Virus record (IMG/VR): IMGVR_UViG_3300035670_000290
Span: 1 to 52,561 of that record
Source: a virus
Lineage: Duplodnaviria; Caudoviricetes
DNA length: 52,561 bases
Direction: 5' to 3' (one strand)
Shown here: piece by piece, positions 10,281-51,054 of the stretch
Layout of the letters: every line of letters starts with the position of its first letter
Position numbering within the stretch: position 1 is the first letter of the stretch
Made by a program: the position numbers and the translations under genes
Notes under the pieces: generated by a model
The model's input: only the letters and a program-made list of their open reading frames with translations
What the model was told of the DNA's origin: nothing
The model's database searches: none

Positions 10281-11252
10281 ATGACGACAACATCACTCTC
10301 AGATATCCTTGGTAGCGATAATCCTCCTGGTCCACAAGGACCCCAGGGACCGCAAGGTGTCATAGGTCCTCAGGGTCCATCTGGTCCACAAGGTCCATCT
10401 GGTCCTCTATTCACACTGACTGTTGAAGAAGTTTATGCTTCGAATAATCAGGTAGCGAATACTGTTACCAATGTCAATAAGATTCAATTTGACTTAGAGT
10501 CTGCATTCAATACTGTCGACCAAACAAGTGGAACGGTTCGTGTTGTAACCAGTTCTACTTTCAAATACTGGGAAGTTGATGGTGTTCTAAAACTTACAGC
10601 ACTCGGTCTCGATACGCTCAATTTGCTCTCTGGCGATAACGTCGTAATTGAGGCGAATGCTGCATCTGAGCCACAGAGCATTCGTTTCAGTGTACCGAAC
10701 GTTGATCTGAAAGTTGCAAAATCTGGTGATACTCTCACTGGAACGTTGAATACTACAAGCCTCATTCCTACAACCGATAATGTTTATACTCTTGGTGACT
10801 CTTCGAATCGCTATCGAAAAGTTTCAGTCGGTCCTGCTGGACTTCAAATCGGAACTGCGAATATTACTTACAGCGATGGTCAACTTGTATCAACAGTTCC
10901 CTTTGCATCAGAAGTTTCTGTTATCGGTCCTTCTGTCACGGTGTCAAATACTGTTACAACAACTACAGATTCTGAAGTTGTTATAGATTCATTCCCCTCC
11001 TCTGACTATGTCACGGTGAAATATGTTATTCAGGCTAAAAGCGTCGAAGGCATCCACGCTACAGAATTATTCTGTATGCATGATGGTATGACTGTTCACA
11101 CAACTGAATATGCCATTTTGATTACAAATTATGTTCTTGGAGTCTTTTCTCTCGTTATTGAAAGCGGAATGTGTAAACTCAAGTTTTTCCCAGATAACCC
11201 GCATAATAATTTGATTACAATTCGTTTCCTCAGACAAGCACTAGAGAGCTAG
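10281..11252 (+). CDS. Fibre/virion structural protein with short collagen segment
   Basis: GPQ collagen repeats near the N-terminus; KVAKSGDTLTG fibre motif; C-terminal IDSF...KYVIQA...HATE...EY domain shared with the next gene. Confidence 0.7.
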   Translation: MTTTSLSDILGSDNPPGPQGPQGPQGVIGPQGPSGPQGPSGPLFTLTVEEVYASNNQVANTVTNVNKIQFDLESAFNTVDQTSGTVRVVTSSTFKYWEVDGVLKLTALGLDTLNLLSGDNVVIEANAASEPQSIRFSVPNVDLKVAKSGDTLTGTLNTTSLIPTTDNVYTLGDSSNRYRKVSVGPAGLQIGTANITYSDGQLVSTVPFASEVSVIGPSVTVSNTVTTTTDSEVVIDSFPSSDYVTVKYVIQAKSVEGIHATELFCMHDGMTVHTTEYAILITNYVLGVFSLVIESGMCKLKFFPDNPHNNLITIRFLRQALES

Positions 11253-11265
11253 AAGGGCAAATTTT

Positions 11266-11273
11266 ACTAAATA
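11266..11273 (+). promoter_or_regulatory. T4-type late promoter-like box (ACTAAATA)
   Basis: Same octamer as 319-326, intergenic, ~40 nt before ATG 11316. Confidence 0.55.
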
Positions 11274-11315
11274 TAAAAGCCGATTGGTTCAAGAATCGGC
11301 TCCAGGAGATTCTAA

Positions 11316-13661
11316 ATGGCGACAATGAATAGAACGTTTAGTGTTAAAACAGGTATTGACCTTGCTAACACAATTATCCTCGATTCGAATCGTAACATTA
11401 GCAATGTCAATATTGCTAATGTTCATACGGTAAATGCGAATTCCATTGTAACAATCGATGGTCTGAACGTTGTCGATCAAGCCAATACTGCTCGAACAAC
11501 TGCGAACGACGCTTATGCCCAAGCGAATACCGCTCGCGACACTGCCAATGATTCTTATGCTCAGGCTAATACTGCTAGAGCGACTGCTAATGATGCATAT
11601 GGACAGGCTAACGCCGCATATGGTCAAGCAAACTCTGCTCGCGATCAAGCCAATACAGCATATGGTCAAGCCAATGCAGCATACGGTCAGGCTAACGATG
11701 CATTCGGGCAAGCCAATGCTGCTTATAGCCAAGCAAATGTAGCCGCCAATACAGTTTCTATTACTGTCGGCGGTCTAACATTAGATAATAAGAAACTCCT
11801 ACTACAAAATACCAGCTCGATGACAATCGAGTTACTCGACGATGGCACAAATGCTAATCTCGTCCTAAAGAGCAGCGGTGGTATTGCTTATGATACTGCT
11901 AATGCTGCTTACGCTCAAGCCAATTCTGCTAGAGACCAAGCAAATACCGCACGTGGTACAGCTAACGACGCATATGCTCAGGCTAACACAGCACGCGATA
12001 CTGCTAATGACGCATATGGTCAAGCCAATACCGCTCGTGGTGTTGCGAATGCTGCCTATGGCCAAGCGAATGCCGCCTATGGTCAGGCTAATGACGCATT
12101 CGGTCAAGCCAACGCTGCATACTTGCAAGCCAATAATGCATACGCTGAAGCAAATCTAAAACTCAATCTAACTGGCGGTACAATCACTGGTGACTTGGAT
12201 GTTACTGGTAACTTGTACGTTGGTGGTAATACAACATACATCAATGTATCAACATATACTGTTGAAGATCCATTGATCTATCTTGCTGCCAATAATGATC
12301 TCGATGACATGGTTGACATCGGCTTTATGGGTGGTAAGAATGCCGCAGGCATCTACTCTCATACTGGTCTTATCCGTCATGCTGCTGATGATAAGTGGTA
12401 TCTCTTCGATGGTCTAGCCGAAGAAGGACATGTCAATAACGTCGTTGATATTGCGAATACAAGCCTCGCAACTCTCCGCGCAAATCTAGAAGCCAATAGC
12501 ATCTTGTTGATGGGCAACACTGTTGCCACGCAAGCAAATCTAACGATTGCTAATGATCAAGCGAATGCTGCATATCTTCAAGCAAACACGGCTTATGGAC
12601 AGGCTAACGATGCGTATGCTCAAGCCAATGCTGGTTACAGCCAAGCCAATGCTGCTTATGGACAAGCCAATGCAGCATACGGTCAGGCTAACCTAGCATA
12701 TGCTGAAGCCAATGTATCTGCTAATACTGTTCGTGTTTATGCTAATAGTGCTGGTTCGTTATCGAACAAGCATCTAAACTTCGTCAATACTGCAAGTATC
12801 CAAGTCAGTGTAACTGATAATGGCGATGGTAATGCAAATATTACATTCTTTACAACTGGTGCTGCGGTTGCTGACGCTTACGCTCAAGCCAATGCTGCTT
12901 ATGGTCAAGCCAATGCCGCTTACGGTCAGGCAAACACTGGATACGATCAAGCGAATGCAGCATATGGACAGGCTAATGCTGCTTACGCTCAAGCAAACCT
13001 ATCATACGCTCAAGCAAATGCTGCTTATGATGAAGCCAATACGAAAGTTGAAACGATTGTAACTGGTCTTGGATTGTCCAACAGTGTTGCAACGGTTGCT
13101 AATGTAACAACAGTAACGATTACACCAAATATTGCTTCTACGACAGTAATCGGTGTGACGAAACTCGTTGATTCTATCACCTCCACAGATACTGCAAATG
13201 CTGCTACTGCAAATGCTGTCAACTGGCTAGAAACTAAGAAGGTCGATCGCGCTGGCGATACGATGACTGGCAAGTTGACAATCAACGCTGCTGGTGAAGG
13301 TCTTGAAGTTGCTAATGCTAACGTAACGAACACTCTAACCGTCCAAGCATTGCAAGTTACAACTAACACTGTAACGACAGCGGCTTCTGGTCAGGTTGTT
13401 CTAGACATCTTCCCAACAACTGAACTTGCTTCTGCAAAATACTTTGTCCAAGCCAATAGTGGTTCAACATATCATACCACTGAAATTATTCTTGTCCAAG
13501 AAGGCACGAATATTTGGATAACTGAATATGGCACTATCCTAACTGGTGCTTCACTCGGAACGTTCAATGCTGACATTGATAGCGGAAATGTGAGATTGTT
13601 GTTCAACGCAACGCAGTCAATCAATACAATTCGTGCTGTACGTTATGGCATTGTACCATAA
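11316..13661 (+). CDS. Long fibre protein with heptad (ANAAYGQ) coiled-coil repeats
   Basis: AGGAG SD. Several blocks of 7-residue A-N-x-A-Y/R/F-x-Q/T repeats; ASTTVIGVTKL...AATANAV phage-fibre-repeat-like segment; KVDRAGDTMTG. Confidence 0.75.
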   Translation: MATMNRTFSVKTGIDLANTIILDSNRNISNVNIANVHTVNANSIVTIDGLNVVDQANTARTTANDAYAQANTARDTANDSYAQANTARATANDAYGQANAAYGQANSARDQANTAYGQANAAYGQANDAFGQANAAYSQANVAANTVSITVGGLTLDNKKLLLQNTSSMTIELLDDGTNANLVLKSSGGIAYDTANAAYAQANSARDQANTARGTANDAYAQANTARDTANDAYGQANTARGVANAAYGQANAAYGQANDAFGQANAAYLQANNAYAEANLKLNLTGGTITGDLDVTGNLYVGGNTTYINVSTYTVEDPLIYLAANNDLDDMVDIGFMGGKNAAGIYSHTGLIRHAADDKWYLFDGLAEEGHVNNVVDIANTSLATLRANLEANSILLMGNTVATQANLTIANDQANAAYLQANTAYGQANDAYAQANAGYSQANAAYGQANAAYGQANLAYAEANVSANTVRVYANSAGSLSNKHLNFVNTASIQVSVTDNGDGNANITFFTTGAAVADAYAQANAAYGQANAAYGQANTGYDQANAAYGQANAAYAQANLSYAQANAAYDEANTKVETIVTGLGLSNSVATVANVTTVTITPNIASTTVIGVTKLVDSITSTDTANAATANAVNWLETKKVDRAGDTMTGKLTINAAGEGLEVANANVTNTLTVQALQVTTNTVTTAASGQVVLDIFPTTELASAKYFVQANSGSTYHTTEIILVQEGTNIWITEYGTILTGASLGTFNADIDSGNVRLLFNATQSINTIRAVRYGIVP
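11480..13040 (+). repeat. Degenerate 21-nt coding repeats (heptads) in four blocks
   Basis: Recurring gc(c/t)aa(c/t)gc.gc.ta(c/t)gg.ca(a/g) units around 11480-11740, 11890-12150, 12550-12720 and 12870-13040. Confidence 0.8.
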
Positions 13662-13664
13662 ATA
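13657..13664 (+). promoter_or_regulatory. T4-type late promoter-like box (CATAAATA)
   Basis: One mismatch to TATAAATA, overlaps the upstream stop codon, precedes a ~100 nt leader. Confidence 0.55.
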
Positions 13665-13759
13665 TAGCTGAACTATAAAATCCATTGGAGGATAGTGAAT
13701 CCGATGAGGTCGTGAGTCGCGCTGAAGCGTGATGTTTTACCCATCGCATTCCTTTCAAT

Positions 13760-16700
13760 ATGCCGACCACACCTAAAACATTTAGCGTAAAAAATGGTAT
13801 TGACGTCGCCAATACCATAATTGTCGATTCGAATCGCAATCTCTCCAATGTGGTTTCTGCAAATGTCGCTGGTATTGACGTTGCGCCAGCACTCAATTCA
13901 GCCGCCAATACCGTTGCTGTTTCTGTCAATAATAACAGCGTTCTATACGGCAAGAAACTCAATTTCGTCAACACCGCCAATGTAACTATTTCTATCACCG
14001 ATGCTGGTGAAGGGAATGCAAACATTGCGATTTTTTCTTTAGGTGGTGGAGAAGGTGGTGGTGGCACTGGTACTGGTAATCCTGGATCAACTCGTAATGA
14101 GTTTACAGGTGACGGAAACACAGCAACATTTTCGCTTTCAGTTGTTCCAACCAGTGAAGCGCATACAATCGTCTTTGTAGACGGTGTTGTTCAGCTAAAC
14201 TCAGATTATAATATTTCTGGTCCAATCCTTCAATTTGTGGTGCCACCAGAAGATAACACAGCAATTCTAGTTTATACAATCGGCGATTCTGGTCCGCAAG
14301 GTCCTACTGGTCCTTCAGGTCCTGCTGGTGCAAATGGAACTATTGGTGTAGACGGTGCTGTTGGTCCGCAAGGTCCACAGGGTCCATCAGGTGCCACTGG
14401 TCCAACAGGTCCTGGTGGTACAGGCACAGGTAATCCTGGATCTACACGAGATCAGTTCACTGGTGACGGCGTAAGCAATACATTCACACTTACCGTTCCA
14501 CCAACAAGCGAAGAACACACTCTCGTTTTTGTTGATGCGATACTACAACCTAATTCTGAATATAGTGTTGCGAATGATCAATTGGTGTTTGAAAACACAC
14601 CTGATAGCAACTCACTAATCATTGTTTATACAATTGGTGACTCAGGTCCGCAAGGTCCAACTGGTCCATCAGGTCCAGGAGGAACTGGTCCTCAGGGTCC
14701 ACAAGGACCGCAAGGTCCATCTGGTGTTCAAGGTAATGATGGTCCATCTGGTCCATCTGGTGCTGTTGGTCCTCAAGGTCCTCAAGGTCCGCAAGGTGTA
14801 GCTGGTCCTCAAGGTCCGCAAGGCGACATCGGACCACAAGGACCTCAAGGTCCACAAGGTGTTGCTGGTGACGCTGGTCCGCAAGGTCCACAAGGACCAA
14901 AGGGTGATCCTGGCGACTTCGGTGGTGCAAGTTTCTACTATCAATTTGATACCGATATTGATGTAGAAAATGTTGCTAATGGTTATGTGATTATTGAGAA
15001 TACTGATTTCTCACTAGCCAATACCATGAGTATCTCTGTCATTGACAGAAGTTCATCAAATATTGCATCGTTTATTCAAACAATTGACGATTCTACAAGT
15101 TCCATCAAAGGAACAATCAAGATCACTGAAGAAGCGAACACGGCTAATTTCGTATTCTTCGCAATTATTGGCACTCATACTGATCACAATGATCACTTTG
15201 ATGTCCCTATTTCTTACACATCAGGTGTTACAACACAATTTGCAGATAACGCAAATGTTGTAATTACGTTTGTTGTTACAGGCGATCGTGGTGATGTTGG
15301 TCCACAGGGTCCACAAGGACCGCAAGGACCACAGGGTCCTCAAGGACCACAGGGTGTCGCTGGTCCACAAGGTCCTCAAGGCGATCTAGGTCCACAAGGT
15401 CCACAAGGTCCATCAGGTGTAAACGGTGATGCTGGTCCTCAAGGTCCACAAGGTCCGCAGGGTGATGCATCAACAGTTCCTGGTCCACAGGGTCCTACTG
15501 GTCCAGCAGGTCCGACTGGTCCATCTGGCACAGGCACAGGTAATCCTGGTTCTACGCGCAATGAATATACTGGTGATGGTAACACCACTATATTTGCTCT
15601 CACTGTTCCACCAACAAGTGAAGAACATACTCTCGTCTTTGTTGATGGTCTAATTCAACCTAACTCATCATATAATATCTCAGGCGCAAATGTGGTATTC
15701 ACTACAGCGCCAGATGCTAATACGCAGATTGGAATTTATACCATTGGTGACTCTGGTCCTCAAGGACCAACTGGTCCATCAGGTCCTGCTGGCGCAAACG
15801 GAACTATTGGTGTTGACGGTGCTGTTGGTCCTCAAGGTCCACAGGGTCCAGCAGGTCCGACTGGTCCTAGCGGAACAGGTACTGGTAATCCTGGTGCGTT
15901 CAAAGATTCATTCGTTGGTGATGGAGCGAATACTGTATTCACTCTTACAATTCCACCAACCAGTGAAGCGCATACTCTTGTCTTTGTAGACAGTATTCTA
16001 CAAACGAATTCAGATTATAATGTAGCAGCATCAAATATTGAATTCACTTCGCCACCAGCATCAAATGCTGCAATTGAAGTTATCATCATTGGCGACTCTG
16101 GTCCACAAGGACCAACAGGTCCATCTGGTTCTAATGGTGCTGCAGGTGATGCTGGTCCTCAAGGTCCTACTGGTCCTGCAGGTCCGACTGGTCCATCAGG
16201 AACTGGTACTGGTAATCCTGGATCAACTCGCGATCAATTTACTGGTGATGGCAATACCGATACATTTATACTCACTGTTCCGCCAACTAGTGAAGCGCAT
16301 ACTCTTGTATTCGTAAATGCAGTACTACAGCCAAATGCTTCTTATAATATCTCTGACGCAAATGTAGTATTCACCGCACCACCAGAATCAAACGCATCAA
16401 TTATTGTTTACACAATTGGTGACTCAGGTCCGCAGGGACCAACTGGTGCTGCTGGTCCAACAGGTCCATCTGGTGCCAATGGTGCTGATGGTCCGCAAGG
16501 TCCTCAAGGACCACAAGGTGTTGCTGGCGATACTGGTCCAACAGGTCCATCTGGTGCCAATGGTGCTGATGGTCCACAAGGACCACAAGGTGATGTTGGT
16601 CCAACTGGTCCAGAAGGTCCTCAAGGACCACAAGGTGATGTTGGTCCAACTGGTCCAGAAGGTCCTCAAGGACCACAAGGTCCAGAAGGTCCGCAAGGTC

Positions 16701-17542
16701 CAGAAGGTCCTCAAGGTCCACAAGGTGATGTTGGTCCAACTGGTCCAGAAGGTCCTCAAGGTCCACAAGGTGATGTTGGTCCAACTGGTCCAGAAGGTCC
16801 ACAGGGTCCATCTGGTCCAACAGGTAATTCGATCTTTGTAACGCAAAATAGCGCAGGATCGATTACAACCAATACAATCAATTTTGTCAATACATCAACC
16901 ATTACGATTGAAACATCAAACAATAATGGTATCCTCAATGTAGCCTTCACGAGCATTGGTGGTGGCGGTGGTGGTGATGGTAATGCAAATCTTACCGTTT
17001 CTGTCAGCGCTCCAACCAGCCCACGCGCAAATCAAGACTTGTGGTGGAATAGTAACACAGGCGCATTGAAGATCTATTATGATGATGGAACTTCAAGTCA
17101 GTGGGTTGATGCATTCGTACCAAAAGGTCCATCAGGTCCTTCTGGTCCAAGTGGTCCGTCTGGTCCAGGAGGAACAGGAACAGGTAATCCTGGATCTACG
17201 AGAGATATTTTCCTCGGTGATGGAACAACTGATACGTTTACGTTGAATGTTACACCTACCAGTGAATCACATACAATCGTCTTTGTTGGCGCAATTCTAC
17301 AAGGTAATGGCGAATATAATATTGCGGATGCAAATATTGTCTTCACCACACCACCTGCCAACAATGATGAAGTTATTGTTTATACAATCGGCGATTCTGG
17401 TCCGCAAGGTCCAACAGGTGCTGCTGGACCAACAGGTCCTGCAGGATCAAATGGTGATGCGGGTCCACAAGGTCCACAAGGTCCATCGGGTCCATCAGGT
17501 GCTTCTGGTGGCGCAGATTTTCATCCATTCTTATTCCTGTGA
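13760..17542 (+). CDS. Collagen-like fibre protein with six repeated globular domains
   Basis: Long G-P-X tracts alternate with six ~70-aa GNPGSTR-FTGDG..FTL..VFV..LQ..Y..F..PP..IGDSG domains. N-terminus paralogous to 11316; C-terminal FHPFLFL tail. Confidence 0.8.
16589..16800 (+). repeat. 45-nt near-perfect coding repeats ([15 protein letters not shown])
   Basis: ggtgatgttggtccaactggtccagaaggtcc starts at 16589, 16634, 16724 and 16769. Confidence 0.85.
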
Positions 17543-17551
17543 GATATTCAA

Positions 17552-17884
17552 ATGCCAAGCACATATAAAGTATTAGGTCAAGTTGCTCCTTCTGCAAATA
17601 GCGTTTCAAATGTATACACTGTTCCAGCAGCAACGCAAGCAGTTGTATCTTCTATTATCATTACAAATCGTAATAATGATGCAAATGCAACATACCGACT
17701 TGCTGTTCAACCAGCTGGTGCTGCACTAGCAAATCAACATTACATTGCTTATGATGCTCCAATCACTGCTCTTGACTCAGTGTCATTGCAGTTAGGGTTG
17801 TCACTTGGTAATACTGATGTTCTTTCTGTATCATCAGCAAATGCAAATATTTCATTCAGTGTCTTTGGTGTAGAGATTACCTGA
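17552..17884 (+). CDS. ~110-aa fibre adaptor-like protein (YKVLGQ class)
   Basis: Paralog of 36656 and 48999 (YTVPAATQAV.SS...HYIA(Y/F)D...FG.E.T); always lies between an anchor gene and a Gly-rich gene. Confidence 0.65.
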   Translation: MPSTYKVLGQVAPSANSVSNVYTVPAATQAVVSSIIITNRNNDANATYRLAVQPAGAALANQHYIAYDAPITALDSVSLQLGLSLGNTDVLSVSSANANISFSVFGVEIT

Positions 17885-17891
17885 TAAAATC

Positions 17892-19655: not shown

Positions 19656-19659
19656 CCAA

Positions 19660-19667
19660 AATAAATA
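19660..19667 (+). promoter_or_regulatory. T4-type late promoter-like box (AATAAATA)
   Basis: Intergenic, ~25 nt before ATG 19691. Confidence 0.55.
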
Positions 19668-19690
19668 TGAGATAATCGGATAAAGAATTC

Positions 19691-20725: not shown

Positions 20726-20726
20726 A

Positions 20727-22825: not shown

Positions 22826-22826
22826 A

Positions 22827-22834
22827 AATAAATA
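22827..22834 (+). promoter_or_regulatory. T4-type late promoter-like box (AATAAATA)
   Basis: Intergenic, ~27 nt before ATG 22861. Confidence 0.55.
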
Positions 22835-22860
22835 GTATAATACTAGGATACATGCGATAA

Positions 22861-24069: not shown

Positions 24070-24070
24070 G

Positions 24071-25726: not shown

Positions 25727-25728
25727 CA

Positions 25729-36654: not shown

Positions 36655-36655
36655 A

Positions 36656-36988: not shown

Positions 36989-36994
36989 TGAAAT

Positions 36995-40577: not shown

Positions 40578-40583
40578 TCTATC

Positions 40584-41912: not shown

Positions 41913-41916
41913 GTAA

Positions 41917-44550
41917 ATGCCGCGCAAATTAGATGGAACATACATTCAAACTGGATCAATTACAACGACTCAGTTATCATCGAATGTTACAGAACAAATT
42001 TCTGCGGGCGGTGGACCAAGAGTTTCTTCTCTGATCTATCCTGGTGACGATACTGCTGCGAATACAGTTGGCGGTCAGACAGTTTATATCAACGGTTCTG
42101 GCTTTGAAACAAACAACGCCATCTATATCAATGGCAATGCTGTTCCATCAAAGTCATTTATCAGCGCGAGCAATGTTTCGTTTACGACACCAGCACTTTC
42201 TGCTGGAATCTATCCAGTCTACTTTATCAATACGGATACTGGTGCCACAGCAATTTTTGTTCCAGGTTTGACCGTTTCTGCTGATCCAACATGGGTAACT
42301 GCAGCAGGAAGTCTAAATGCTTCTCAAGATGAAACATCCGCATGGAGTTATTCTTTGTCAGCAACTGGTGATGATCCAATTACATATGCTCTTGCAGATG
42401 GCAGTTCATTGCCAACTGGAATTTCTTTAGCAGCAAATGGTGTTATCTCAGGAACATTATCTTCACCACCAGGTACAGAAACGACTTATACATTCTCTGT
42501 TGTTGCAACAGATGCTCAGAATCAAGATTCTACAAGACAATTTACTGTGACAACGACCAGTGGTGAAGGTGTTCTGTTTGCCAACAACGTTCTCTTGATT
42601 CACGCTGATGGAACTAACAATCAGAACAATCATGCGTTTCTAGATTCTTCGAATAATAACTTCACAATCACAAGATATGGTAATGCTACGCAGGGATCGT
42701 TTAGTCCATTTAGTCAGACTGGATGGAGTAACTATTTTGATGGAAACGGTGATTACTTGTCATTTCCAAGTGATGCAGCCTTTGGTTTTGGCACAGGTGA
42801 TATTACTATAGAATGTTGGTTTTACCATACAAGCAGATCAACAACAGCAACATTATTCTCAAACGCAAATGATACACTAAATTTATATATCAATACTTCT
42901 GGTGTTTTTGGTGTTTATGATGGTTCTGTCAGAAATAGTAGCCAAACAGTTCCTCTAAATTCATGGAATCACTTCGCTTATGTTCGCTCTTCAGGAACAG
43001 CAAAATTATATTATAATGGAACAGAAGTATTATCATTCTCAAGTTCTACAAATTATGGCACTTCTGCAGTTAGAATTGGTGTGAATTATGGTGGTGGTTC
43101 TGGATCGGATTACGCAACAGGTAGCATCAGCAATTTAAGAGTTGTCAAAGGCACTGCACTTTACACAGAAGCCTTCACACCATCAACAACACCACTTCAA
43201 CCTATCGCAAACACTTCTCTGCTAACCTGTCAGTCTAATCGATTTATTGACAATAGCACCAATAATCTAACCATCACTCGTAATGGTGATACTTCTATTC
43301 AAGCCTTCTCTCCATTCGCACCAACTGCTGCATACTCAACAGCGAATGTTGGTGGTAGTGGGTATTTTGATGGAAGTGGAGATTATCTCACATTACCATC
43401 AAATGATTCTGCTTTCAATTGCGGCGCTGATAGTTTTACGCTTGAATTTTGGTATTATGATGATGGAACTTCAACATTATATCCTAATATTTTTGGATCT
43501 AATGATTGGACTTCGGGTGTCGGTGGAATCAATATAAGATACAACAATACTGGTAATGCAAATAAATTTTATGTAGCGAAATATGCTGGGAACTCTACAC
43601 CTAATGGTGGATCTGGTGTAAATGAATTGATGCTAACAGCTAATACATATGCACCAAAATGTTGGCATCATGTAGCCTTCGTGAGAAATGGGAATAACTT
43701 TAGAATTTATGTAAATGGTGTGAAAGATGCAGAAACCACATCTACAATTTCTGTTGACTGGAATTTGAATTCAGCAGGACCAAGAATTGGTGGTGGTAAT
43801 TGGGATGGAGCAAACAGTAATATCAAGGCTTATGTTTCTGGTCTAAGATTGATCAAAGGCGTTGCGCTTTATACAGACAACTTCACACCCCCAACTGCAC
43901 CATTGACAAATATCGCCAACACATCTCTACTCCTCAACTTCACCAACGCTGGTATTTTTGATCAAACTGCGAAGAATGTAATTGAAACACAAAGTGATGC
44001 AAAAATCAGTACTAGCGTGTATAAGTATGGGACTGGCTCAGTGTATTTTGATGGGACTGGAGACTGGTTGTTGGCTCCTAGCAATGTACTTTTTGATATT
44101 GGTGGAGATTTTACTATTGAGATGTGGTTTTATGCCACCTCAGTAGCACCTACATATCAAGGTCTTTGTGGACGCCGAGCGAGTGCTGCATCATTTGGTC
44201 CATTTTCCATGGGTCTCAATGGATCAGCAATTTTGTTTAGTCTCTCAACCTCTGGTAGTTCATGGGCACTAAATTCTACTGGAGGCACGGTTACTGCAAA
44301 TACATGGAATCATGTCGCGTTTGTTCGAAGTGGAACTTCCTGTGTTGCATACCTAAATGGTACGTCTGTAGTTACAGGTACGGTTTCTGGTGCTCTTGCA
44401 AGTAGTTCGCAAAAGTTAGCCATTGGATCATTTACCAGTGATGGTTCTGATTTGTTTACTGGGTATATCGACGATTTCCGATTTACACGTGGTCAGGCTC
44501 GCTACACATCTAACTTCACACCACCAACTTCTGCACTCAAGGACAAATAA
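41917..44550 (+). CDS. Fibre tip protein: IPT + putative Ig + three LamG-like domains
   Basis: Colinear paralog of 37953 and 44550. Confidence 0.8.
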   Translation: MPRKLDGTYIQTGSITTTQLSSNVTEQISAGGGPRVSSLIYPGDDTAANTVGGQTVYINGSGFETNNAIYINGNAVPSKSFISASNVSFTTPALSAGIYPVYFINTDTGATAIFVPGLTVSADPTWVTAAGSLNASQDETSAWSYSLSATGDDPITYALADGSSLPTGISLAANGVISGTLSSPPGTETTYTFSVVATDAQNQDSTRQFTVTTTSGEGVLFANNVLLIHADGTNNQNNHAFLDSSNNNFTITRYGNATQGSFSPFSQTGWSNYFDGNGDYLSFPSDAAFGFGTGDITIECWFYHTSRSTTATLFSNANDTLNLYINTSGVFGVYDGSVRNSSQTVPLNSWNHFAYVRSSGTAKLYYNGTEVLSFSSSTNYGTSAVRIGVNYGGGSGSDYATGSISNLRVVKGTALYTEAFTPSTTPLQPIANTSLLTCQSNRFIDNSTNNLTITRNGDTSIQAFSPFAPTAAYSTANVGGSGYFDGSGDYLTLPSNDSAFNCGADSFTLEFWYYDDGTSTLYPNIFGSNDWTSGVGGINIRYNNTGNANKFYVAKYAGNSTPNGGSGVNELMLTANTYAPKCWHHVAFVRNGNNFRIYVNGVKDAETTSTISVDWNLNSAGPRIGGGNWDGANSNIKAYVSGLRLIKGVALYTDNFTPPTAPLTNIANTSLLLNFTNAGIFDQTAKNVIETQSDAKISTSVYKYGTGSVYFDGTGDWLLAPSNVLFDIGGDFTIEMWFYATSVAPTYQGLCGRRASAASFGPFSMGLNGSAILFSLSTSGSSWALNSTGGTVTANTWNHVAFVRSGTSCVAYLNGTSVVTGTVSGALASSSQKLAIGSFTSDGSDLFTGYIDDFRFTRGQARYTSNFTPPTSALKDK

Positions 44551-47216
44551 TGGCTCGTAAAATTCCAGGTGGCGCGATTCAAGCCAATACAATTACAGTA
44601 ACACAGTTGCAGACGACTGTTGTCAGTCAGATTTCAGCAGGTGGTGGTCCTCGCGTCTCCTCTCTGATCTATCCTGGAGATGATACTGCAGCAAACACTG
44701 CTGGCGGTCAGACAGTGTATATTACAGGTTCTGGTTTCGCTGCAAATGCGAATGTGTATATCAACGGAAACGCTGTTCCTTCGATCTCCTTTATTTCAGC
44801 AGGTAATCTAGCAATTACAACTCCTGCTCTTTCTTCTGCGACTTATCCAGTTTATGTAATCAATCCAGAAGATGGTGCAACAGCCATTCATATTCCAGGA
44901 TTGAGAGTTTCTGGTGAACCAGTCTGGGTCACCTCTGCTGGAAGTCTTGCTGCTTCTCAAGATGAAGGTTCTGCTTGGAGTTATAGTGTATCAGCAACCA
45001 GTGATTCTTCAGTCACTTATGCTCTTGCTGGTGGCAGTTCATTGCCAACAGGAATTACACTGGCTGCTAACGGATTGATCAGCGGAACATTGAGTTCACC
45101 TCCTGGAACTGAGACGACATACAACTTTTCAGTGATTGCAACTGATGCTGAAAATCAAAGCGCATCATCTAGAGAATTTAGTGTGACTGTTTCTTCAGGT
45201 GAGGGTGTGTTGTTTGCTAACAATGTTTTATTGATTCACGCAGATGGAACCAACAATCAGAACAATCATACATTCGTAGATTCTTCGAATAATAATCTAA
45301 CAATCACAAGATATGGTAATGCTACACAAGGAACGTTTAGTCCATTCAGTCAGACTGGATGGAGTAACTATTTTGATGGTAGCGGAGATAGACTAACAAT
45401 AGCTGATAATACAGCATTGCGTTTCGGTACAGGAGATTTTACTATAGAATTTTGGATGTATCCGAGTCAAACAAATGCGTATATGCGTCCAATTGGAACA
45501 GGAAATACTGAAGCAGGTGCGTGGTCTATTATTTTAAACAATGATGCTACATTTACTCTAGCCTTTGCCACTAGTGGAGTATTTTCTTCTGCTATTTCTT
45601 ATTCAGCCAACATTTGGCAACATATCGCTATCGTAAGAAGCGGCACCACTATTTCTTGTTTTGTTAACGGAATCAGACAACAAACAACTACTAGCAGTTA
45701 TGATTTAAATGCAGCAGCAAGTGTGTTCATAGGATATACTGATGCTGCATCAGCTCAAGCATTTTTAGGATATATGTCTAATGTTCGTTTGGTGAAGGGG
45801 ACCGCAGTATATGATCCATCATTATCGACCCTGACAGTACCAACATCACCACTCACCGCTATTACCAACACTTCTCTGCTGACCTGTCAGAGCAACCGCT
45901 TCGTAGACAATAGCACCAATGCATTCACGATTACTCGCGCTGGCGACACTTCAGTTCAAGCCTTCTCTCCATTCGCACCATCAATTGCATACTCACCAGC
46001 TGCTGTTGGTGGTAGTGTATACTTTGATGGATCAGCTGATTATTTGATGCCAGCAAATAGCACAGCGACAGATTTAGGTATCAGTCAACAACCATTTACT
46101 CTGGAGTGGTGGACTTATTTCACAACCTCTTCTGGTGGACAATATATCATATCCAAAGGTGGCGGTGCTGGTGCATGGAATAGTACAAATGGATGGCAAT
46201 ATATTCTTAGTATAGAATTGAGTAGTGGTGTTATAAGTCTTGGTTATTATAACGGAAGTAGTTACACTTATTGGCAACCAGCATTCACTGTTTCTACTGT
46301 TTTAGGTAGATGGTCTCACATGGCTATGTCCTATGATGGAACCAATTTATCTTTCTATATAAACGGAACAAGAATCGGCACAACAACAGCAACCAATTTC
46401 AGCAAACCTTCTGCATCAGACAAGTGTAGTATAGGTTCTACTGCAGGTGTTACTGAGAGTTATCACTATAGCGGTTATGTTTCTGATCTAAGAATAGTTC
46501 GCGGATCAGCTGTCTATAATCCAACACTCTCAACGTTGACTGTTCCAACAGCACCACTGACAAACATCGCAAACACATCTCTACTCCTCAACTTCACCAA
46601 CGCTGGCATCTTCGATCAAACAGCGAAGAATGTAATTGAAACTGTTGGTGATGCGAAAGTTAGCACTTCACAATATAAGTATGGTACTGCTTCGATGTAC
46701 TTTGATGGTAGTGGGGATTATATCCAAACGCCATCGAGCCCTCAATTTGCATTTGGTGGTGTGGATTTTACAATAGAGTGTTGGGTTTATGGTGTAAGTA
46801 AAGTTCGTTCATTCCCATACATTTATTCAAATAACATAGCGTTTGGAAGCAATTTTATTGGGTTGATTCATAACCACGACTCTTATTCAAATAAGGTTGT
46901 ATTTTATGTTTATAACTCATCAACTTCACCAATTTTGCAAAGCACAACTTCTATCGGAAATAATGAATGGTTTCATGTTGCAGTTTCTAGAAGCGGAAAT
47001 ACTTTTAGATTGTTCATAAATGGTGCGCTTGAAGCCAACACCACATACAGTGGATCTATCGATGGTGGTGGGACAAAACAGGCTCGTATAGGATCAGGTC
47101 CTACTTTGAGTAGTGACGAATTTAATGGTTATCTCGATGACTTCCGTATCACCAAGGGCTACGCTCGTTATACTGCTAACTTCACTCCACCAACTGCTGC
47201 GCTGAGGGACAAGTAA
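44550..47216 (+). CDS. Fibre tip protein: IPT + putative Ig + three LamG-like domains
   Basis: Colinear paralog of 37953 and 41917; TAATG overlap. Confidence 0.8.
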   Translation: MARKIPGGAIQANTITVTQLQTTVVSQISAGGGPRVSSLIYPGDDTAANTAGGQTVYITGSGFAANANVYINGNAVPSISFISAGNLAITTPALSSATYPVYVINPEDGATAIHIPGLRVSGEPVWVTSAGSLAASQDEGSAWSYSVSATSDSSVTYALAGGSSLPTGITLAANGLISGTLSSPPGTETTYNFSVIATDAENQSASSREFSVTVSSGEGVLFANNVLLIHADGTNNQNNHTFVDSSNNNLTITRYGNATQGTFSPFSQTGWSNYFDGSGDRLTIADNTALRFGTGDFTIEFWMYPSQTNAYMRPIGTGNTEAGAWSIILNNDATFTLAFATSGVFSSAISYSANIWQHIAIVRSGTTISCFVNGIRQQTTTSSYDLNAAASVFIGYTDAASAQAFLGYMSNVRLVKGTAVYDPSLSTLTVPTSPLTAITNTSLLTCQSNRFVDNSTNAFTITRAGDTSVQAFSPFAPSIAYSPAAVGGSVYFDGSADYLMPANSTATDLGISQQPFTLEWWTYFTTSSGGQYIISKGGGAGAWNSTNGWQYILSIELSSGVISLGYYNGSSYTYWQPAFTVSTVLGRWSHMAMSYDGTNLSFYINGTRIGTTTATNFSKPSASDKCSIGSTAGVTESYHYSGYVSDLRIVRGSAVYNPTLSTLTVPTAPLTNIANTSLLLNFTNAGIFDQTAKNVIETVGDAKVSTSQYKYGTASMYFDGSGDYIQTPSSPQFAFGGVDFTIECWVYGVSKVRSFPYIYSNNIAFGSNFIGLIHNHDSYSNKVVFYVYNSSTSPILQSTTSIGNNEWFHVAVSRSGNTFRLFINGALEANTTYSGSIDGGGTKQARIGSGPTLSSDEFNGYLDDFRITKGYARYTANFTPPTAALRDK

Positions 47217-47774
47217 ATGCCAACAGTTTATAAACTTCCAGGTAGTGCTGTTCAAGCAAATACATTGACCACAACTCAGTTGGCTTCTAATATAGCACCA
47301 ACAGACAGAGTCTTGAAAACTGGCGATACAATGACAGGTCAGTTGACAATTTCTGCTGGTGGTTTGAATATGGAAACTACCACGACTCTTCAGCAAACAA
47401 AAGAACGAGTCAATGTGAGCGCAACAGCAATGAGTGCAAATCTAACTGTTGATCTTCTAAACGGTGCTGTGACTTATCTAACGTCGAATTCTACTGCTAA
47501 TTGTACTCTCAATTTTAGAGGCAATAGCACAACAACATTAGATTCTATTTTGTCGAATGGGCAATCAATGACGTCATTGGTTCTAATCACCAATGGCGCT
47601 ACAGGTTATTTGATTTCTAATGTACAAATTGATGATATTCCCGTAACTCCAAAGTGGTCGGGCAACTCAGCTCCAACAGCAAACACTGACGCTATTGATG
47701 CGTTTGGGTTCACAATCATCAAGACAGCTGCAAATACATATACTGTTCTTGGTTCAAAAACTGAATTTGTGTAA
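47217..47774 (+). CDS. Short fibre/anchor protein
   Basis: Shared N-terminal motif; VLKTGDTMTG; C-terminal KW.G..APT....D...FTIIKTA...YTVL domain typical of fibre ends that precede an adhesin gene. Confidence 0.65.
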   Translation: MPTVYKLPGSAVQANTLTTTQLASNIAPTDRVLKTGDTMTGQLTISAGGLNMETTTTLQQTKERVNVSATAMSANLTVDLLNGAVTYLTSNSTANCTLNFRGNSTTTLDSILSNGQSMTSLVLITNGATGYLISNVQIDDIPVTPKWSGNSAPTANTDAIDAFGFTIIKTAANTYTVLGSKTEFV

Positions 47775-47779
47775 TAATC

Positions 47780-48760
47780 ATGCCTCTGATCTCTACAATT
47801 GCTAGTGGCTCAATTTCTGTCGTTGGTGGTGTAGGAATTCAAATCGCCAGAAGAAAAGTTATTTCTGGTGCTGCTGGACCAATTTTTGTTGAATATCTAG
47901 TTCTTGCTGGTGGTGGTGGAGGCGGCGGCATCGGTGCAGGTGGTGGAGCTGGTGGTTATCGCACAGGTACAGATTTTGAAGTAACTCCAGGAACAACATA
48001 TACCATCACTGTTGGTAGTGGTGGTACTGGCACTGGCTCTCCATACTCAGTCGGTGGAAGTGGAACTCAATCACTATTTGGTGCAATCACATCCGCTGGC
48101 GGTGGAGGTGGTGGAGGCTATAATTTAGCTGGCGGAAATGGTGGTTCAGGCGGCGGTGGTGCTGCCCCAGCAAATGCTGGTGGTTCAGGTAACACTCCAT
48201 CAACTTCTCCATCTCAAGGTAATGGTGGAGGTTCTGGAGCACTAGCAACACAACGTTTTCTTGGTGGTGGTGGAGGCGGCGCAAGTGCTCCTGGCGGCAG
48301 CGCAAGTTCTTCTCCTGCTCCACGTGGTGATGCAGGTGGTGGCGGTGATGGTTTAGCATCAACGATCACAGGCGTTTCTGTGACTCGCGGTGGCGGTGGT
48401 GGTGGTTGTAGCGGAATTCGAGGAGCCAGTCCAAGTAATCCAGGCACTCCTTCGCAGCAAAAGGCTGGTGGAGCAGGTGGTGGTGGGACAGGTGGTGGAT
48501 CAACTCCAGCGACAGGTGCAGCTGGTAATGGTGGCACCAATCTAGGTGGTGGTGGAGGTGGTGGTGGATTCCATGGCACTCCAACTCCTGCAGGTCCTGG
48601 AGGTAGTGTCAGAAATGGTGGAAACGGTGGTTCTGGTGTGGTCATCATCAAATATCCAGACACAAGTCCTGAAGCCACAACAACAGGTAGCCCAACCGTC
48701 ACCGTTTCTGGTGGATTTAGAATTTATGTTTTCAATGCCTCTGGTAGTATCACATTCTAA
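47780..48760 (+). CDS. Glycine-rich adhesin-like protein (single domain)
   Basis: VEYLVLAGGGGG...GGSGVVIIKYP...IYVFNASGSITF. Confidence 0.7.
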   Translation: MPLISTIASGSISVVGGVGIQIARRKVISGAAGPIFVEYLVLAGGGGGGGIGAGGGAGGYRTGTDFEVTPGTTYTITVGSGGTGTGSPYSVGGSGTQSLFGAITSAGGGGGGGYNLAGGNGGSGGGGAAPANAGGSGNTPSTSPSQGNGGGSGALATQRFLGGGGGGASAPGGSASSSPAPRGDAGGGGDGLASTITGVSVTRGGGGGGCSGIRGASPSNPGTPSQQKAGGAGGGGTGGGSTPATGAAGNGGTNLGGGGGGGGFHGTPTPAGPGGSVRNGGNGGSGVVIIKYPDTSPEATTTGSPTVTVSGGFRIYVFNASGSITF

Positions 48761-48787: not shown

Positions 48788-48997
48788 ATGGCAATATACA
48801 AATTTCCTGGCTCCGCTATTGAAGCCAACACAATTACATCAACGCAGATGGATAGCAATACTTGGAATCAGGTATACACTGCTTTGTCTACTGCGAACAC
48901 TGCATACGATCAAGCCAATGCAGCATTTGCGCAAGCGAATACTGGTGGTGGCGGTAGTGGTGGATTCAGTAAATCTTTCCTCATGAGTGGACTCTAA
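48788..48997 (+). CDS. Mini anchor protein
   Basis: FPGSAIEANTITSTQM..TW.QVY.AL..AN.AY heptads; ends GGFSKSFLMSGL; paralog of 32982. Confidence 0.6.
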   Translation: MAIYKFPGSAIEANTITSTQMDSNTWNQVYTALSTANTAYDQANAAFAQANTGGGGSGGFSKSFLMSGL

Positions 48998-48998
48998 G

Positions 48999-49331
48999 AT
49001 GGCAGAAACATTTAAAATTCTCGGTCAAATTGCAGCAACTGCAAATACCACACATAATGTCTATACAGTTCCTGCTGCAACTCAAGCAGTGATTTCTTCG
49101 ATTGTAATTGTCAATAGAAATGATAATGCCAATTGCACGTATCGTGTTGCAGCGCAGCCAGCTGGAGCAGCACTTGCAAATGATCACTATATCGCATACG
49201 ATGCTCCGATTGCAGCATTGGATACTGTTGCTCTATCATTGGGTGTAACATTGGGAAATACTGATATTATCTCAGTATACAGCGCAAACGCAAATCTATC
49301 GTTCAGTGTATTCGGAACAGAAATAACCTAA
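48999..49331 (+). CDS. ~110-aa fibre adaptor-like protein (Y/FKxLGQ class)
   Basis: ATG 48999 (MAETFKILGQ) aligns with paralog 17552, with long identical stretches such as QPAGAALAN.HYIAYDAPI.ALD. Confidence 0.65.
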   Translation: MAETFKILGQIAATANTTHNVYTVPAATQAVISSIVIVNRNDNANCTYRVAAQPAGAALANDHYIAYDAPIAALDTVALSLGVTLGNTDIISVYSANANLSFSVFGTEIT

Positions 49332-49332
49332 T

Positions 49333-51054
49333 ATGGGCTTCAAGACTGGATCATTTCTTTCTATCGCCAATCGTGGATTGAATCCGCTGATCAGCAGCGC
49401 AGTCACAAGAGCTGTCCGCAATCCATTATGGAATTTCGGTAGAACAGTAATTACCACATTCACATCTTCTGGAACATGGACTTGTCCTGTTGACGTAACT
49501 GAGGTGGAATATTTGGTGATTGCTGGAGGAGGCGGCGGCGGTCCTCGCGGTGGAGGTGGAGGTGCTGGTGGATTTAGAACTGGCGCAGGACTTGCAGTTG
49601 TTCCAGGACAAACATATTCTATTATTGTTGGTGCTGGTGGTGCGCAATCTACCGATAGTTCAACTGGTGGAACAACATATAATGGATCAAATAGTTCATT
49701 TTCCACAATAACATCAAATGGTGGTGGAGCTGGTGGAGTATTTCAGGCACCAGGTAATAGTGGTGGTTCTGGTGGTGGTGCAGGAAGAGATTCGAATAAC
49801 GCAGCTGGTGGTGCTGGTAATACTCCACCAGCATCTCCATCACAAGGTAACAATGGTGGAATAAGTCCATCAAATGCCTACTCTGGTGGTGGCGGTGGTG
49901 GGGGAGCAGGTGGAGTTGGTGGTACTGCTGCAGCAGGACAATATTCAGAATATGGCGGCATGGGTGGTGCTGCAGCTGTAAGTTCAATTTCTGGGACAGC
50001 AGTGTATTATGCTGGTGGTGGGGGAGGCGGTGCATTTTCTGGTTCATTGAGTGTTGCCGATTATGGACTAGGTGGTGGAACATCAGTAACTGCAAATAAA
50101 GGTGGTGCTGGAAATGGCGGATATTCAAATGGCCAAGGTGGGTCAAGAAGACCTACAGCTGCGCTCGCCAATTCAGGCGGTGGCGGCGGTGGTGGTGGCG
50201 ATAGTGGCTCTGGTGGATATGTTGGTGGGTTTGATGGTAGTCCAGGTGGCTCTGGCATTGTAATTCTCAAGTATATACTTCCAACATCAAGCGGAATTGT
50301 TTTCACAACAACATCACAATGGACTGTTCCAGAAGGTGTCACTTCTGTTGATTATCTTGTCATTGCTGGCGGTGGTGGTGGTGGATTTGATATAAGGGGT
50401 AATCGTGGTGCTGGTGGTGGTGGCGCAGGTGGCTATCGCGCAGGAGCAAACTTATCTGTAACTCCAGGAAACACATATACAATCACTGTTGGTGCTGGTG
50501 GAGCTGGAGGCAATGGTTCTACAATAAAAGGGACTAATGGTTCTGTTTCAATCTTCAATGATATAACTTCTGCAGGCGGTGGCGGAGGTGGTGGCACAAA
50601 TACAGGCGGAGATCCTGTTCCCAGCCCATCTGCACCTTCTGGTGGCTCAGGTGGAGGTGGATATACCGCAGGTGGTGCTGGAAATACTCCATCAACATCT
50701 CCATCTCAAGGAAATAATGGTGGAAATGGTGGGTATAATCCTGGATTGTTCGGAAGTGGAGGTGGTGGAGCAGGCACTGCTGGTTCAGATGCAACTGGTA
50801 GTTCTGCTGGTAACGGTGGTGATGGAGCAACATCTTCAATTTCTGGTGAAGCAGTTGTACGCGCTGGTGGTGGAGGAGGAGGTCGTGGTGGCTTGGGTGG
50901 TAGCGGCGGTGGTGGAAATGGAAATCCAGGCAGTGGCGGCGGCAACGGATCAGACGGATTGACCAATTATGGTGGCGGTGGTGGGGGTGGAACATCACCT
51001 GGATCTTTTGGTGGTTCTGGTGGCTCTGGTATCGTAATCATCAAACTGAACTAA
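49333..51054 (+). CDS. Glycine-rich adhesin-like protein (two Gly-rich domains)
   Basis: RNP.W.FGRTV N-terminal motif shared with 17892; double Gly-rich framework. Confidence 0.7.
   Translation: MGFKTGSFLSIANRGLNPLISSAVTRAVRNPLWNFGRTVITTFTSSGTWTCPVDVTEVEYLVIAGGGGGGPRGGGGGAGGFRTGAGLAVVPGQTYSIIVGAGGAQSTDSSTGGTTYNGSNSSFSTITSNGGGAGGVFQAPGNSGGSGGGAGRDSNNAAGGAGNTPPASPSQGNNGGISPSNAYSGGGGGGGAGGVGGTAAAGQYSEYGGMGGAAAVSSISGTAVYYAGGGGGGAFSGSLSVADYGLGGGTSVTANKGGAGNGGYSNGQGGSRRPTAALANSGGGGGGGGDSGSGGYVGGFDGSPGGSGIVILKYILPTSSGIVFTTTSQWTVPEGVTSVDYLVIAGGGGGGFDIRGNRGAGGGGAGGYRAGANLSVTPGNTYTITVGAGGAGGNGSTIKGTNGSVSIFNDITSAGGGGGGGTNTGGDPVPSPSAPSGGSGGGGYTAGGAGNTPSTSPSQGNNGGNGGYNPGLFGSGGGGAGTAGSDATGSSAGNGGDGATSSISGEAVVRAGGGGGGRGGLGGSGGGGNGNPGSGGGNGSDGLTNYGGGGGGGTSPGSFGGSGGSGIVIIKLN

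Follow-up and report, generated by a model that had tools for sequence, protein, structure and literature searches.

How are the many fiber proteins encoded side by side in one stretch of viral DNA joined to each other and to the virion? The stretch is IMG/VR record IMGVR_UViG_3300035670_000290, which we analyzed whole (52,561 bases, estimated to be 23% complete) and call the window; all of its genes are on the + strand, and we name them by their first nucleotide. Relatives of the last gene (51883-) occur in 133 phage records, of which 104 are from Synechococcus phages (identity ≤49%; the best relative, at 49%, is labeled 'virion structural protein'), and a cytidyltransferase-like gene and an endolysin-like gene (9041–10249) are located upstream of the fiber region; therefore, the source is an uncultured T4-like marine myovirus, and the fiber region is its host-adhesin supermodule. 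An initial annotation had paired four motif classes (A to D) as plugs and sockets of one tree-like fiber, 10281>11316>13760>19691>22861>24071, that displays a dozen or more tips. The reading that we favor, with moderate confidence, is that the fragment, with about twenty tail-fiber genes, encodes several separate fiber systems assembled from shuffled modules, that is, a long fiber, adaptor-coupled tips, ten anchor fibers, and structural beads. What we observe are motifs, domain families, a gp9-like fold, cross-genome adjacencies, and a covariation.

All four motif classes occur at the coordinates first reported, as confirmed by a regular expression (regex) scan. The class A socket motif is located at aa 235–277 of gene 10281–11252 (nt 10983–11111) and, in a second copy, at aa 696–738 of gene 11316–13661 (nt 13401–13529); its proposed plug, TFSVK.GID.ANTII.DSNRN, is located at aa 7–27 of both 11316 and 13760. 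In class B, a ~70-aa FxG(D/T)G domain occurs nine times (six in 13760, one in 19691, two in 22861), and an N-terminal peptide, LxGxAIxxxTITxxQL (the anchor peptide), is found in eight open reading frames (ORFs) of at least 80 aa (28448, 30903, 36412, 37953, 40584, 41917, 44550, and 47217). Two small ORFs below the usual ORF cut-offs (32982–33209, 76 aa; 48788–48994, 69 aa) were picked up by a hidden Markov model (HMM) built from the other eight; once they are counted, the claimed total of ten is reached. In class C, the LWW motif occurs at exactly 17039–17113 and 20495–20569, and MAINFP.SPSLND.YSYG..TWQW opens genes 19691 and 22861. In class D, five genes end in hydrophobic tails (13760, ..HPFLFL; 19691, ..SYFLGF; 32982, ..LVIALS; 36412, ..FMLAGM; 48788, ..FLMSGL), and in each of the five cases the next gene encodes ~110 aa (17552, 20727, 33229, 36656, and 48987) and the one after it is Gly-rich (17892, 21086, 33557, 36995, and 49333). 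Because these are near-identical stretches of 20–45 residues or whole domains, the matches are not chance; related viral contigs also contain the window modules, and the order is conserved.

Socket and plug domains of a proposed long fiber

We aligned the domains that end 10281 and 11316 with eight relatives (socket alignment A3). The AlphaFold2 (AF2) model of the socket domain (predicted local distance difference test, pLDDT, 87.2) is an eight-stranded sandwich, and its top Foldseek match is T4 gp9 (E 3e-5). In VIA-align, residues 22–128 of the model match gp9 residues 170–284 with Z 14.5 and a root-mean-square deviation of 1.8 Å over 104 aa; next in rank come a Klebsiella phage KP1 baseplate chain (Z 12.1) and several tailspike C-terminal domains (Z 8–10). 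The alignment of the socket profile to the gp9 sequence by hhalign (P 0.004, 57 columns, 26% identity) falls at gp9 182–242, the same region as the structural match, and phrog_967, 'baseplate wedge tail fiber protein connector', matches 10281 at aa 219–282 (E 6e-6). According to passages in PMC3004832, the C-terminal domain of gp9 is the coaxial attachment site of the T4 long tail fibers; according to a passage in PMC12143355, gp9 and the N-terminal region of gp34, the next fiber protein, have similar structures. The plug can be aligned with gp34 from residue 1 without gaps, sharing M1, F8, G13, and Ile or Leu at position 14 (D15 is present in all plug rows but one).

The same adjacency is found in other genomes. 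In 17 of the 22 loci selected by the plug, every plug gene is directly 3' of an ORF that ends in a socket; many of these 17 are near-identical populations. In the set selected by the socket (158 confirmed relatives, 68 loci; downstream ORF of at least 60 aa), 28 of the 48 distinct socket-ending ORFs with a downstream ORF are followed by an N-terminus that fits M.{1,7}F.[VAI][KQREH].G[LIFV] (e.g., MANSNFVVQNGLQVG), and the coupling persists down to 29% socket identity; the background is 107 of 2944 ORFs, the plug genes themselves included. T4 gp34 fits this regex, and in the window only 11316 and 13760 do. The pairing proposed for class A is supported by the fold, the gp34-like N-terminus that comes next, and these adjacencies; the accompanying claim that docking differs from the T4-baseplate type is wrong for this class because the socket folds as the gp9 C-terminal domain and the plug resembles gp34. 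Sequence and model together support a linear plug-and-socket joint of the known gp9/gp34 kind, reused in a new place.

With such joints, a long fiber of three segments would be assembled coaxially in the manner of T4 gp9 > gp34. The protein encoded by 10281–11252 (a weak Pfam Collagen match at the N-terminus, a beta-rich middle, and the gp9-C-like beta-sandwich at aa ~217–323) would be the gp9-like socket protein, with a collagenous N-terminus. That encoded by 11316–13661 (gp34-like plug at aa 1–30; alanine-zipper coiled coils, two INFVN-type hairpin modules, and a GDTMTG fiber repeat in the middle; second gp9-C-like socket at aa ~660–781) would be a proximal coiled-coil rod that docks with its N-terminus on the 10281 socket and presents the second socket at its other end. 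The distal stalk, 13760–17542, would dock likewise on the socket of 11316; it has the gp34-like plug, six DUF4183 beads among collagen runs, the LWW hairpin motif, and the tail HPFLFL (Pfam Collagen 3.9e-52; DUF4183 78 bits, cut-off 25.1; Phage_T7_tail at the N-terminus 26.7 bits, marginal).

Compared with the T4 long tail fiber (gp9 > gp34 > gp35 > gp36 > gp37), the window shares the gp9-C fold with weak sequence similarity, the gp34-type motif at the N-terminus of the next protein, and the encoding of segments in order. It differs in that the N-terminus of its socket protein is collagen-like whereas that of gp9 is a coiled coil, that a fiber segment, too, ends in the socket, that its rods consist of alanine-zipper coiled coil and of collagen beaded with DUF4183, that homologues of gp35 and gp36 are absent from the window, and that the gene for the plug adjoins the gene for the socket, a long distance separating genes 9 and 34 in T4. 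In gp9, the N-terminal coiled coil and the middle sandwich bind baseplate gp7; the fragment carries no baseplate genes. Reuse of the socket at the end of a fiber segment would show that the T4 fiber socket is not a baseplate part only. Searches of phage records by tblastn with protein 10281 and with the plug peptide gave no match, and PDB sequence searches with 11316 and 22861 gave nothing useful.

Several points weigh against this reading of the long fiber. The physical contacts, stoichiometries, and virion positions in it, as in our reading of the other fiber systems, are ones that we infer. The profile comparison of plug and gp34 is weak (P 0.03 over 19 columns), and both the plug regex and the tail regex used below were composed after seeing the data. 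Five plug-selected loci, all of one group (L120–L124), have a plug-type fiber and no socket within 4 kb; a socket search of records G020–G023, which contain L120, L121, L123, and L124 and are 9–29% complete, found none (the record of L122 was outside the search). The two plugs of the window are 55% identical and the two sockets 30%; no visible feature enforces the order 10281>11316>13760, and a plug-and-socket gene duplicated in tandem would yield the same alternation. The socket domain is also a large family (6539 cluster representatives at E ≤1e-3; no Pfam family in 15 scanned of the 150 representatives listed); among those 150 it is mostly C-terminal, and some have arrays of up to nine copies per protein. 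Since the same beta-sandwich ends Acinetobacter and Klebsiella phage tailspikes (Z 8–10) and occurs in such arrays, it is not always a socket.

These observations can be accommodated if all of the fibers attach independently to the baseplate through their N-termini, with classes A, B, and C as classes of anchor, the gp9-like domain as a distal knob or trimerization cap (as the tailspikes, other phage fibers ending in the same fold, and the tandem arrays would allow), and the gene order as the product of tandem duplication; the plug-type fibers of L120–L124 that have no nearby socket fit this explanation, as does 11316, which holds both plug and socket like a duplicated unit. However, in the window and its relatives the gene order is socket only, then both, then plug only; the plug motif follows socket-ending genes in diverse cases (the 28 of 48 above); and in T4 it is the gp9 C-terminal domain that is the fiber socket and gp34 that has the plug motif. 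We consider independent attachment unlikely and prefer the coaxial long fiber.

Hydrophobic tails, probable adaptors, and tips at fiber ends

The coupling of a hydrophobic fiber tail, a ~110-aa adaptor, and a tip is strongly supported by sequence comparisons, widespread, and apparently undescribed in print. With the adaptor as the sole criterion, we obtained 404 confirmed relatives and retained 79 loci; in 78 of these an ORF ends ≤160 nt upstream of the adaptor. The upstream ORF ends in [FLMIV][LMFIV][LMTFIV][MAIGSL]G[AMGVLI] in 74 of the 78 (e.g., FLLMGA, FMLGGM, FLLAGM, and LMLMGG), against a background of 9 of the 1930 ORFs in the same loci; two of the four exceptions are nonetheless hydrophobic. 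The carriers of the tail range from 57 aa to ORFs that leave the stretch (about 1000 aa read), and their fiber bodies are mutually unrelated (collagen, ANAAY coiled coil, and, in locus L143, Mtd_N). The same arrangement is found in Pontimonas siphovirus phiPsal1 (gp020, ..NALMLMGG, followed by gp021) and in Prochlorococcus phage P-SSM2 (gp301, ..SEFFVGQI, followed by gp302). Downstream of the adaptor, 32 of 74 ORFs have a Gly fraction of at least 0.25 by our own count, that is, roughly half of the tips are not Gly-rich; judged by eye, the tip N-termini are alike whatever the body, of an M-[AGS]-[IVF]-[KRS] type (MAVSKLNP, MSIRSL.., MAIKSF.., MGFKTGSF..). Literature searches with FLLMGA, FLLAGM, FMLMGA, and LMLMGG found no description of these tail motifs in phages, and a search for the tail fiber of HTVC010P by cryo-electron microscopy found none.

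Tail and adaptor also vary together. Among 40 tail/adaptor pairs (five from the window and 35 from the 79 loci, picked for a clear upstream ORF and for diversity), adaptor identity tracks the identity of the last six tail residues, with a Mantel r of 0.46 that was matched by 2 of 2000 permutations, in a statistic that ignores phage kinship; r is 0.45 in the 720 of 780 comparisons in which the fiber bodies are unrelated. Nothing else in our data argues as strongly for a 'code' as class D does, and such a code would be located at fiber ends. The association is also seen in the window, where three canonical adaptors pair with canonical tip N-termini and two divergent ones (23–28% identity) with divergent tails and tips, and in a comparison with the collinear contig G001: there the HPFL-type tail keeps its canonical adaptor and tip while the carrier changes from a 1260-aa stalk to an 84-aa mini-fiber, and the other tail type keeps its divergent adaptor. 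The class D pairing is strongly supported, as a linear joint at fiber ends that recurs in unrelated viral loci. One point that weighs against it is that the canonical tail motif fits only two of the five tails in the window.

In the proposed device, which the window would use five times, a fiber ends in a short Gly-linker and the hydrophobic C-terminal motif, the jelly-roll adaptor encoded next would bind this tail, and the tip protein encoded third (here Gly-rich, of polyglycine type) would join through its conserved N-terminus. The first use would be at the end of the long fiber, where 13760 is followed by a canonical adaptor (17552–17884; AF2 model, phrog_1276, no Pfam family) and a tip protein with two Gly_rich_2 domains and the N-terminus MAVKYHSLQSI of the conserved tip type (17892–19655; Pfam PF21722, 3.9e-45). 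The second is a short stalk (19691–20725) with a MAINFP N-terminus, one DUF4183, collagen, the LWW motif, and the variant tail SYFLGF; it precedes a divergent adaptor (20727–21086; adaptor HMM match and alignments) and a tip protein whose N-terminus is divergent and which again has two Gly_rich_2 domains (21086–22825; Pfam 2.5e-44).

The other three are compact triads (32982–35167, 36412–37927, and 48788–51054), each with a 'mini-fiber' that precedes adaptor and tip genes. A 76-aa mini-fiber (32982–33209; anchor peptide, ANAAY coiled coil, tail LVIALS) stands before a divergent adaptor (33229–33555) and a Gly_rich_2 tip (33557–35167); an 80-aa one (36412–36654; anchor peptide, INFVN module, canonical tail FMLAGM) before a canonical adaptor (36656–36988) and a Gly-rich tip with the N-terminus MSIRSL (36995–37927); and a 69-aa one (48788–48994; anchor peptide, ANAAY coiled coil, canonical tail FLMSGL) before a canonical adaptor (48987–49331) and a Gly_rich_2 tip with the N-terminus MGFKTGSF (49333–51054). 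Across the window, six proteins exceed the Pfam gathering score for Gly_rich_2 (PF21722), with 36995 just under it (23.0 vs 24.3), and ten copies of the domain are present.

The adaptor has 2126 homologues at E ≤1e-3, and it is ~110 aa in all of the 120 listed; a pattern scan of IMG/VR gave an estimate of about 3100 stretches with a pattern match. Sequence searches found no Pfam family and no PDB relative (phrog_1276 was matched), a search of the ESM Atlas returned viral clusters only, and hhalign found no relation between the adaptor and the gp9-like domain. The AF2 model (pLDDT 85.8) is a small jelly roll of eight strands with generic fold matches (HFTV1 turret, Z 10.4; KHP40 cement, Z 9.9; Ena1B, 9.9; in Foldseek, BxpB, 8d02, E 6e-4, TMq 0.43). 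A complex prediction of three copies of the adaptor with three copies of the last 40 aa of the mini-fiber (36656 and 36412 as first sequences) gave ipSAE 0.01 and 0.01 against a mark of 0.32; with no controls folded, a partner pLDDT <50, and the rows of 32982 and 48788 one residue short in the mini-fiber alignment, it weighs neither way. As a separate observation, the adaptor N-terminus MPTEYKVLGQ (36656–36988) resembles the short-fiber anchor MPTVYKLPGS of 47217–47774 (hhalign P 0.011, 13 columns), which may reflect chance or a shared strand-docking element; we considered and rejected a fused adaptor in 47217, in which only these N-terminal 13 residues are adaptor-like.

A different role for the 110-aa protein would be that of a fiber-assembly chaperone that recognizes the hydrophobic C-terminal motif and stays outside the virion, with the tips independent of it. 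Genes directly 3' of fiber genes often encode chaperones (e.g., T4 gp38 and lambda Tfa), and in the window the Gly-rich gene 47780 comes after a fiber that has no adaptor. However, a depositors' note in the phiPsal1 record labels the homologue 'putative virion structural protein' and gives as its match a protein of Pelagibacter phage HTVC010P called 'virion structural protein'; the small jelly roll is a fold of oligomeric virion-surface proteins such as the turret and cement proteins above; and the tip N-terminus is conserved regardless of body, which suggests a third docking element. We regard the chaperone as distinctly unlikely and retain the structural adaptor.

Two known arrangements resemble the proposed device. 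T2/S16 gp38 on gp37 and the Pam3 fiber likewise have a separate Gly-rich tip gene after the fiber gene, as do the Gly_rich_2 proteins here, and passages in PMC13243192 cite polyglycine/polyproline II bundles in S16 gp38 and a cyanophage fiber; the window differs in having a 110-aa jelly-roll gene between fiber and tip and a conserved hydrophobic fiber end. In the docking of the BclA/F-Anchor leader peptide in the ExsF/BxpB jelly-roll trimer, a small jelly-roll protein holds a collagen-like fiber by a short peptide at the fiber's terminus, the peptide occupying a trimer cleft (according to passages in PMC12357932); that peptide is N-terminal whereas the tail in the window is C-terminal, and the fold match is generic. 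If our reading is correct, tail, adaptor, and tip form a general exchangeable coupling through which diverse fibers can bear equally diverse receptor-binding tips, sequence would suffice to parse host-range modules in uncultured marine phages, and a large adaptor family that has no annotation would acquire a function.

DUF4183 beads, anchor fibers, and hairpin motifs

The FxGDG domain of class B is Pfam DUF4183 (PF13799); 13760 scores well above the cut-off, and 19691 (21.0 bits) and 22861 (22.6 bits) are just below it. As characterized in 2025, DUF4183 is the subunit of F-ENA endospore appendages: according to passages in PMC12357932, its trimers stack, a seven-residue N-terminal hook (M-P-psi-psi-$-P-psi) docks in a hydrophobic inter-protomer cleft, and the collagen-like F-Anchor and F-BclA dock on the trimers in the same way. 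The window shares with F-ENA the Pfam family and the collagen-like triple helices seen in F-Anchor, and beads on a string would be expected. It differs in that all nine of its copies are embedded in collagen-like proteins of 344–1260 aa (six, one, and two per protein) instead of being terminal or free 10-kDa subunits; no gene for a free ~10-kDa subunit, as expected of a stacked F-ENA-type appendage, is found in the window, and the phage DUF4183 has no hook partner that tracks it across genomes. In a PDB sequence search, the phage DUF4183 had 52 matches at E ≤1, none named F-ENA (the best was the N-terminus of a 'Phage particle protein', E 0.007).

Could these beads be the lateral sockets of a branched fiber? 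In such an arrangement, the inter-protomer clefts of each DUF4183 trimer would take the N-terminal peptides of the ten anchor fibers (and/or the MAINFP stalks), giving a stalk with about ten side fibers and one fiber that displays a dozen tips. The published precedent of DUF4183 trimers as sockets for N-terminal hooks, which also serve F-Anchor and F-BclA, weighs for this arrangement and against our reading, as do anchors that begin M-x-I-[FY]-K-[LF]-P (MTIFKLPG, MAIYKFPG) and are, like MAINFPS, loosely hook-like. The DUF4183/anchor counts are also similar in the window (9/10) and in collinear G001 (6/7). Beyond these two contigs, however, the numbers are uncoupled: G007 has 0/7, G005 and G006 each 0/3, and G008, G012, and G013 have 8/0, 4/0, and 3/0 by the anchor HMM (two variant N-termini were seen by eye in G008). 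In G007 (65 kb), the upstream genes shared with the window are 30–90% identical, the endolysin homologue leads straight into a mini-fiber/adaptor/tip triad, and the whole stalk cassette (window 10281–28440) is absent at that place; despite its seven anchor fibers, neither Pfam nor our own HMM found DUF4183 in its 65 kb. G007 is 37% complete, so that the cassette could be elsewhere in that genome, a further point against our reading.

What is conserved in the anchor is a core, KLxGxAIxxxTITxxQL, rather than its first residues, and neither the anchor nor the MAINFP class of N-termini co-occurs with DUF4183 across genomes. In G008 (the record of L073; local 24863–30181 of bases 30001–101244), a 1773-aa protein with an IKRTS..GELALN-type N-terminus and five DUF4183 domains continues into a region homologous to aa 24–877 of window 41917 (TIG and three LamG), that is, the stalk is fused in line and takes the place of the anchor. 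In G003, G008, G013, and G001, DUF4183 often comes in threes within one chain, as direct tandem repeats spaced by ~75 aa that lack intervening collagen, which recalls the 'triad of DUF4183 domains' that a passage in PMC12357932 reports for clostridial F-Anchor-3. With copy numbers uncoupled across genomes, the core of the anchor outside the first residues, and the phage domain distant from F-ENA, a branched fiber on DUF4183 sockets is very improbable.

The tree-like apparatus of the initial annotation is accordingly not supported, the joints of classes A and D being linear, and neither are its nine sockets for ten plugs: the expected correlation of their copy numbers fails. From the sequences we conclude that the anchor peptide probably binds a conserved virion site and that DUF4183 domains are bead modules. 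The ten short fibers, which share the ~20-aa N-terminal anchor and have TIG and lectin-like or Gly-rich heads, would attach at that site, probably on the baseplate, and not to the beads; DUF4183 and the LWW and MAINFP hairpin motifs would be structural fiber modules. DUF4183 links phage collagen-like fibers to F-ENA spore appendages; our literature search found no link between DUF4183 or F-ENA and phages, and the word 'phage' is absent from PMC12357932.

Six of the anchor fibers have a TIG-type aligned region after the anchor peptide, and Pfam TIG scores in four of those. Two (28448–30901 and 30903–32405, together 28448–32405) have a fused Gly-rich domain as head, and four (37953, 40584, 41917, and 44550, together 37953–47216) have one to three lectin-like Laminin_G_3 domains (up to 6.7e-54). 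A 185-aa fiber with anchor peptide and GDTMTG repeat (47217–47774; phrog_5906) is followed by a Gly_rich_2 protein (47780–48760), with no adaptor between them and no canonical tail; the pair, which spans 47217–48760, also occurs in G007, where the Gly-rich gene is duplicated. The branched complexes of CBA120, G7C, and RaK2, which have T4 gp10-like docking domains, are similar in having many receptor-binding proteins per phage, conserved N-terminal docking segments, and a docking domain related to T4 baseplate connector proteins; unlike theirs, the gp9-like domain of the window is C-terminal and its joints would be coaxial, not lateral. No match labeled gp10 was found on the stalk proteins in Pfam or PHROG, the fold searches having covered the socket and the adaptor; 22861 matches 'baseplate wedge subunit/initiator' families solely through its C-terminus.

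The class C motifs are common fiber modules, since their coupling is loose. LWW is a widespread fiber repeat, often with two to four copies per protein, and MAINFP N-termini are common as well, with 577 confirmed stretches. In the MAINFP-selected set (80 loci, 74 distinct MAINFP-type ORFs), the ORF directly upstream carries LWW in 17 of 72 cases, at 72–643 aa from its end, and 18 of the 74 MAINFP-type ORFs carry LWW themselves; the LWW-to-MAINFP pairing of the initial annotation is therefore weak. Three further relationships were considered and found unsupported: homology of LWW to the MAINFP motif (hhalign, six columns, probability 0.9%); LWW as an Mtd_N hairpin, with no match to Pfam PF18454 at E ≤1 in either LWW region or the MAINFP N-terminus (the mini-fiber of locus L143 does match Mtd_N, 1e-18); and MAINFP as an F-ENA-type hook for DUF4183, which is present in only 4 of the 80 MAINFP-selected loci, all close relatives of the window. 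We also noted by eye about eight copies of a ~35-aa 'INFVN' module (xLNFVNTxxVxVxVxxxxGxxNVxF) in 11316–13661, 13760–17542, 19691–20725, and 36412–36654; it adjoins Gly runs and is often immediately ahead of the LWW motif.

The second MAINFP protein, 22861–24069, has two DUF4183 domains, collagen, and a C-terminal Peptidase_S74 at aa 319–365 (PF13884, 31.5 bits vs a cut-off of 22), and its C-terminus matches those of PHROG long-tail-fiber distal subunits. Peptidase_S74 is an intramolecular chaperone domain that is cleaved off. Because 22861 ends in its own chaperone, it would be a complete, self-contained fiber that supplies a distal end itself, which leaves the suggested link 22861>24071 without a basis.

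Genes within and next to the fiber region

Downstream of 22861, three fiber-associated genes (24071–25726, 25934–27640, and 27640–28440; together 24071–28440) belong to the stalk cassette missing from G007. Protein 24071 matches phrog_677, 'baseplate wedge tail fiber protein connector' (E 6.6e-10), and contains a cupredoxin-like stretch (..HP.Y/W..YY.C..H..M.G..) that also occurs within the stalks of the relatives L010, L016, and L017; in G008, a gene starting MAILKNT comes after an S74-ending fiber, as 24071 does in the window. A megablast search of phage records with 9041–24069 returned only collagen-repeat matches, which are trivial.

Two 2OG-Fe(II) oxygenase genes (32407–32979 and 35431–36036; Pfam 2OG-FeII_Oxy_5, E 2e-15 and 1.6e-22) are located amid the collagen-like fiber genes and are kept in G001; their products might modify fiber proteins, e.g., by prolyl hydroxylation. 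On the other side of the fiber region, a gene with a lipoprotein signal (8440–8682; MKKIAFLLALSFTLVGCE..) and a gene with a membrane span (8685–9032) are immediately 5' of the GH19/M15 endolysin-like gene 9041–10249; the three form a lysis-cassette-like group that adjoins the fiber module and is kept at 82–90% in G001 and G007.

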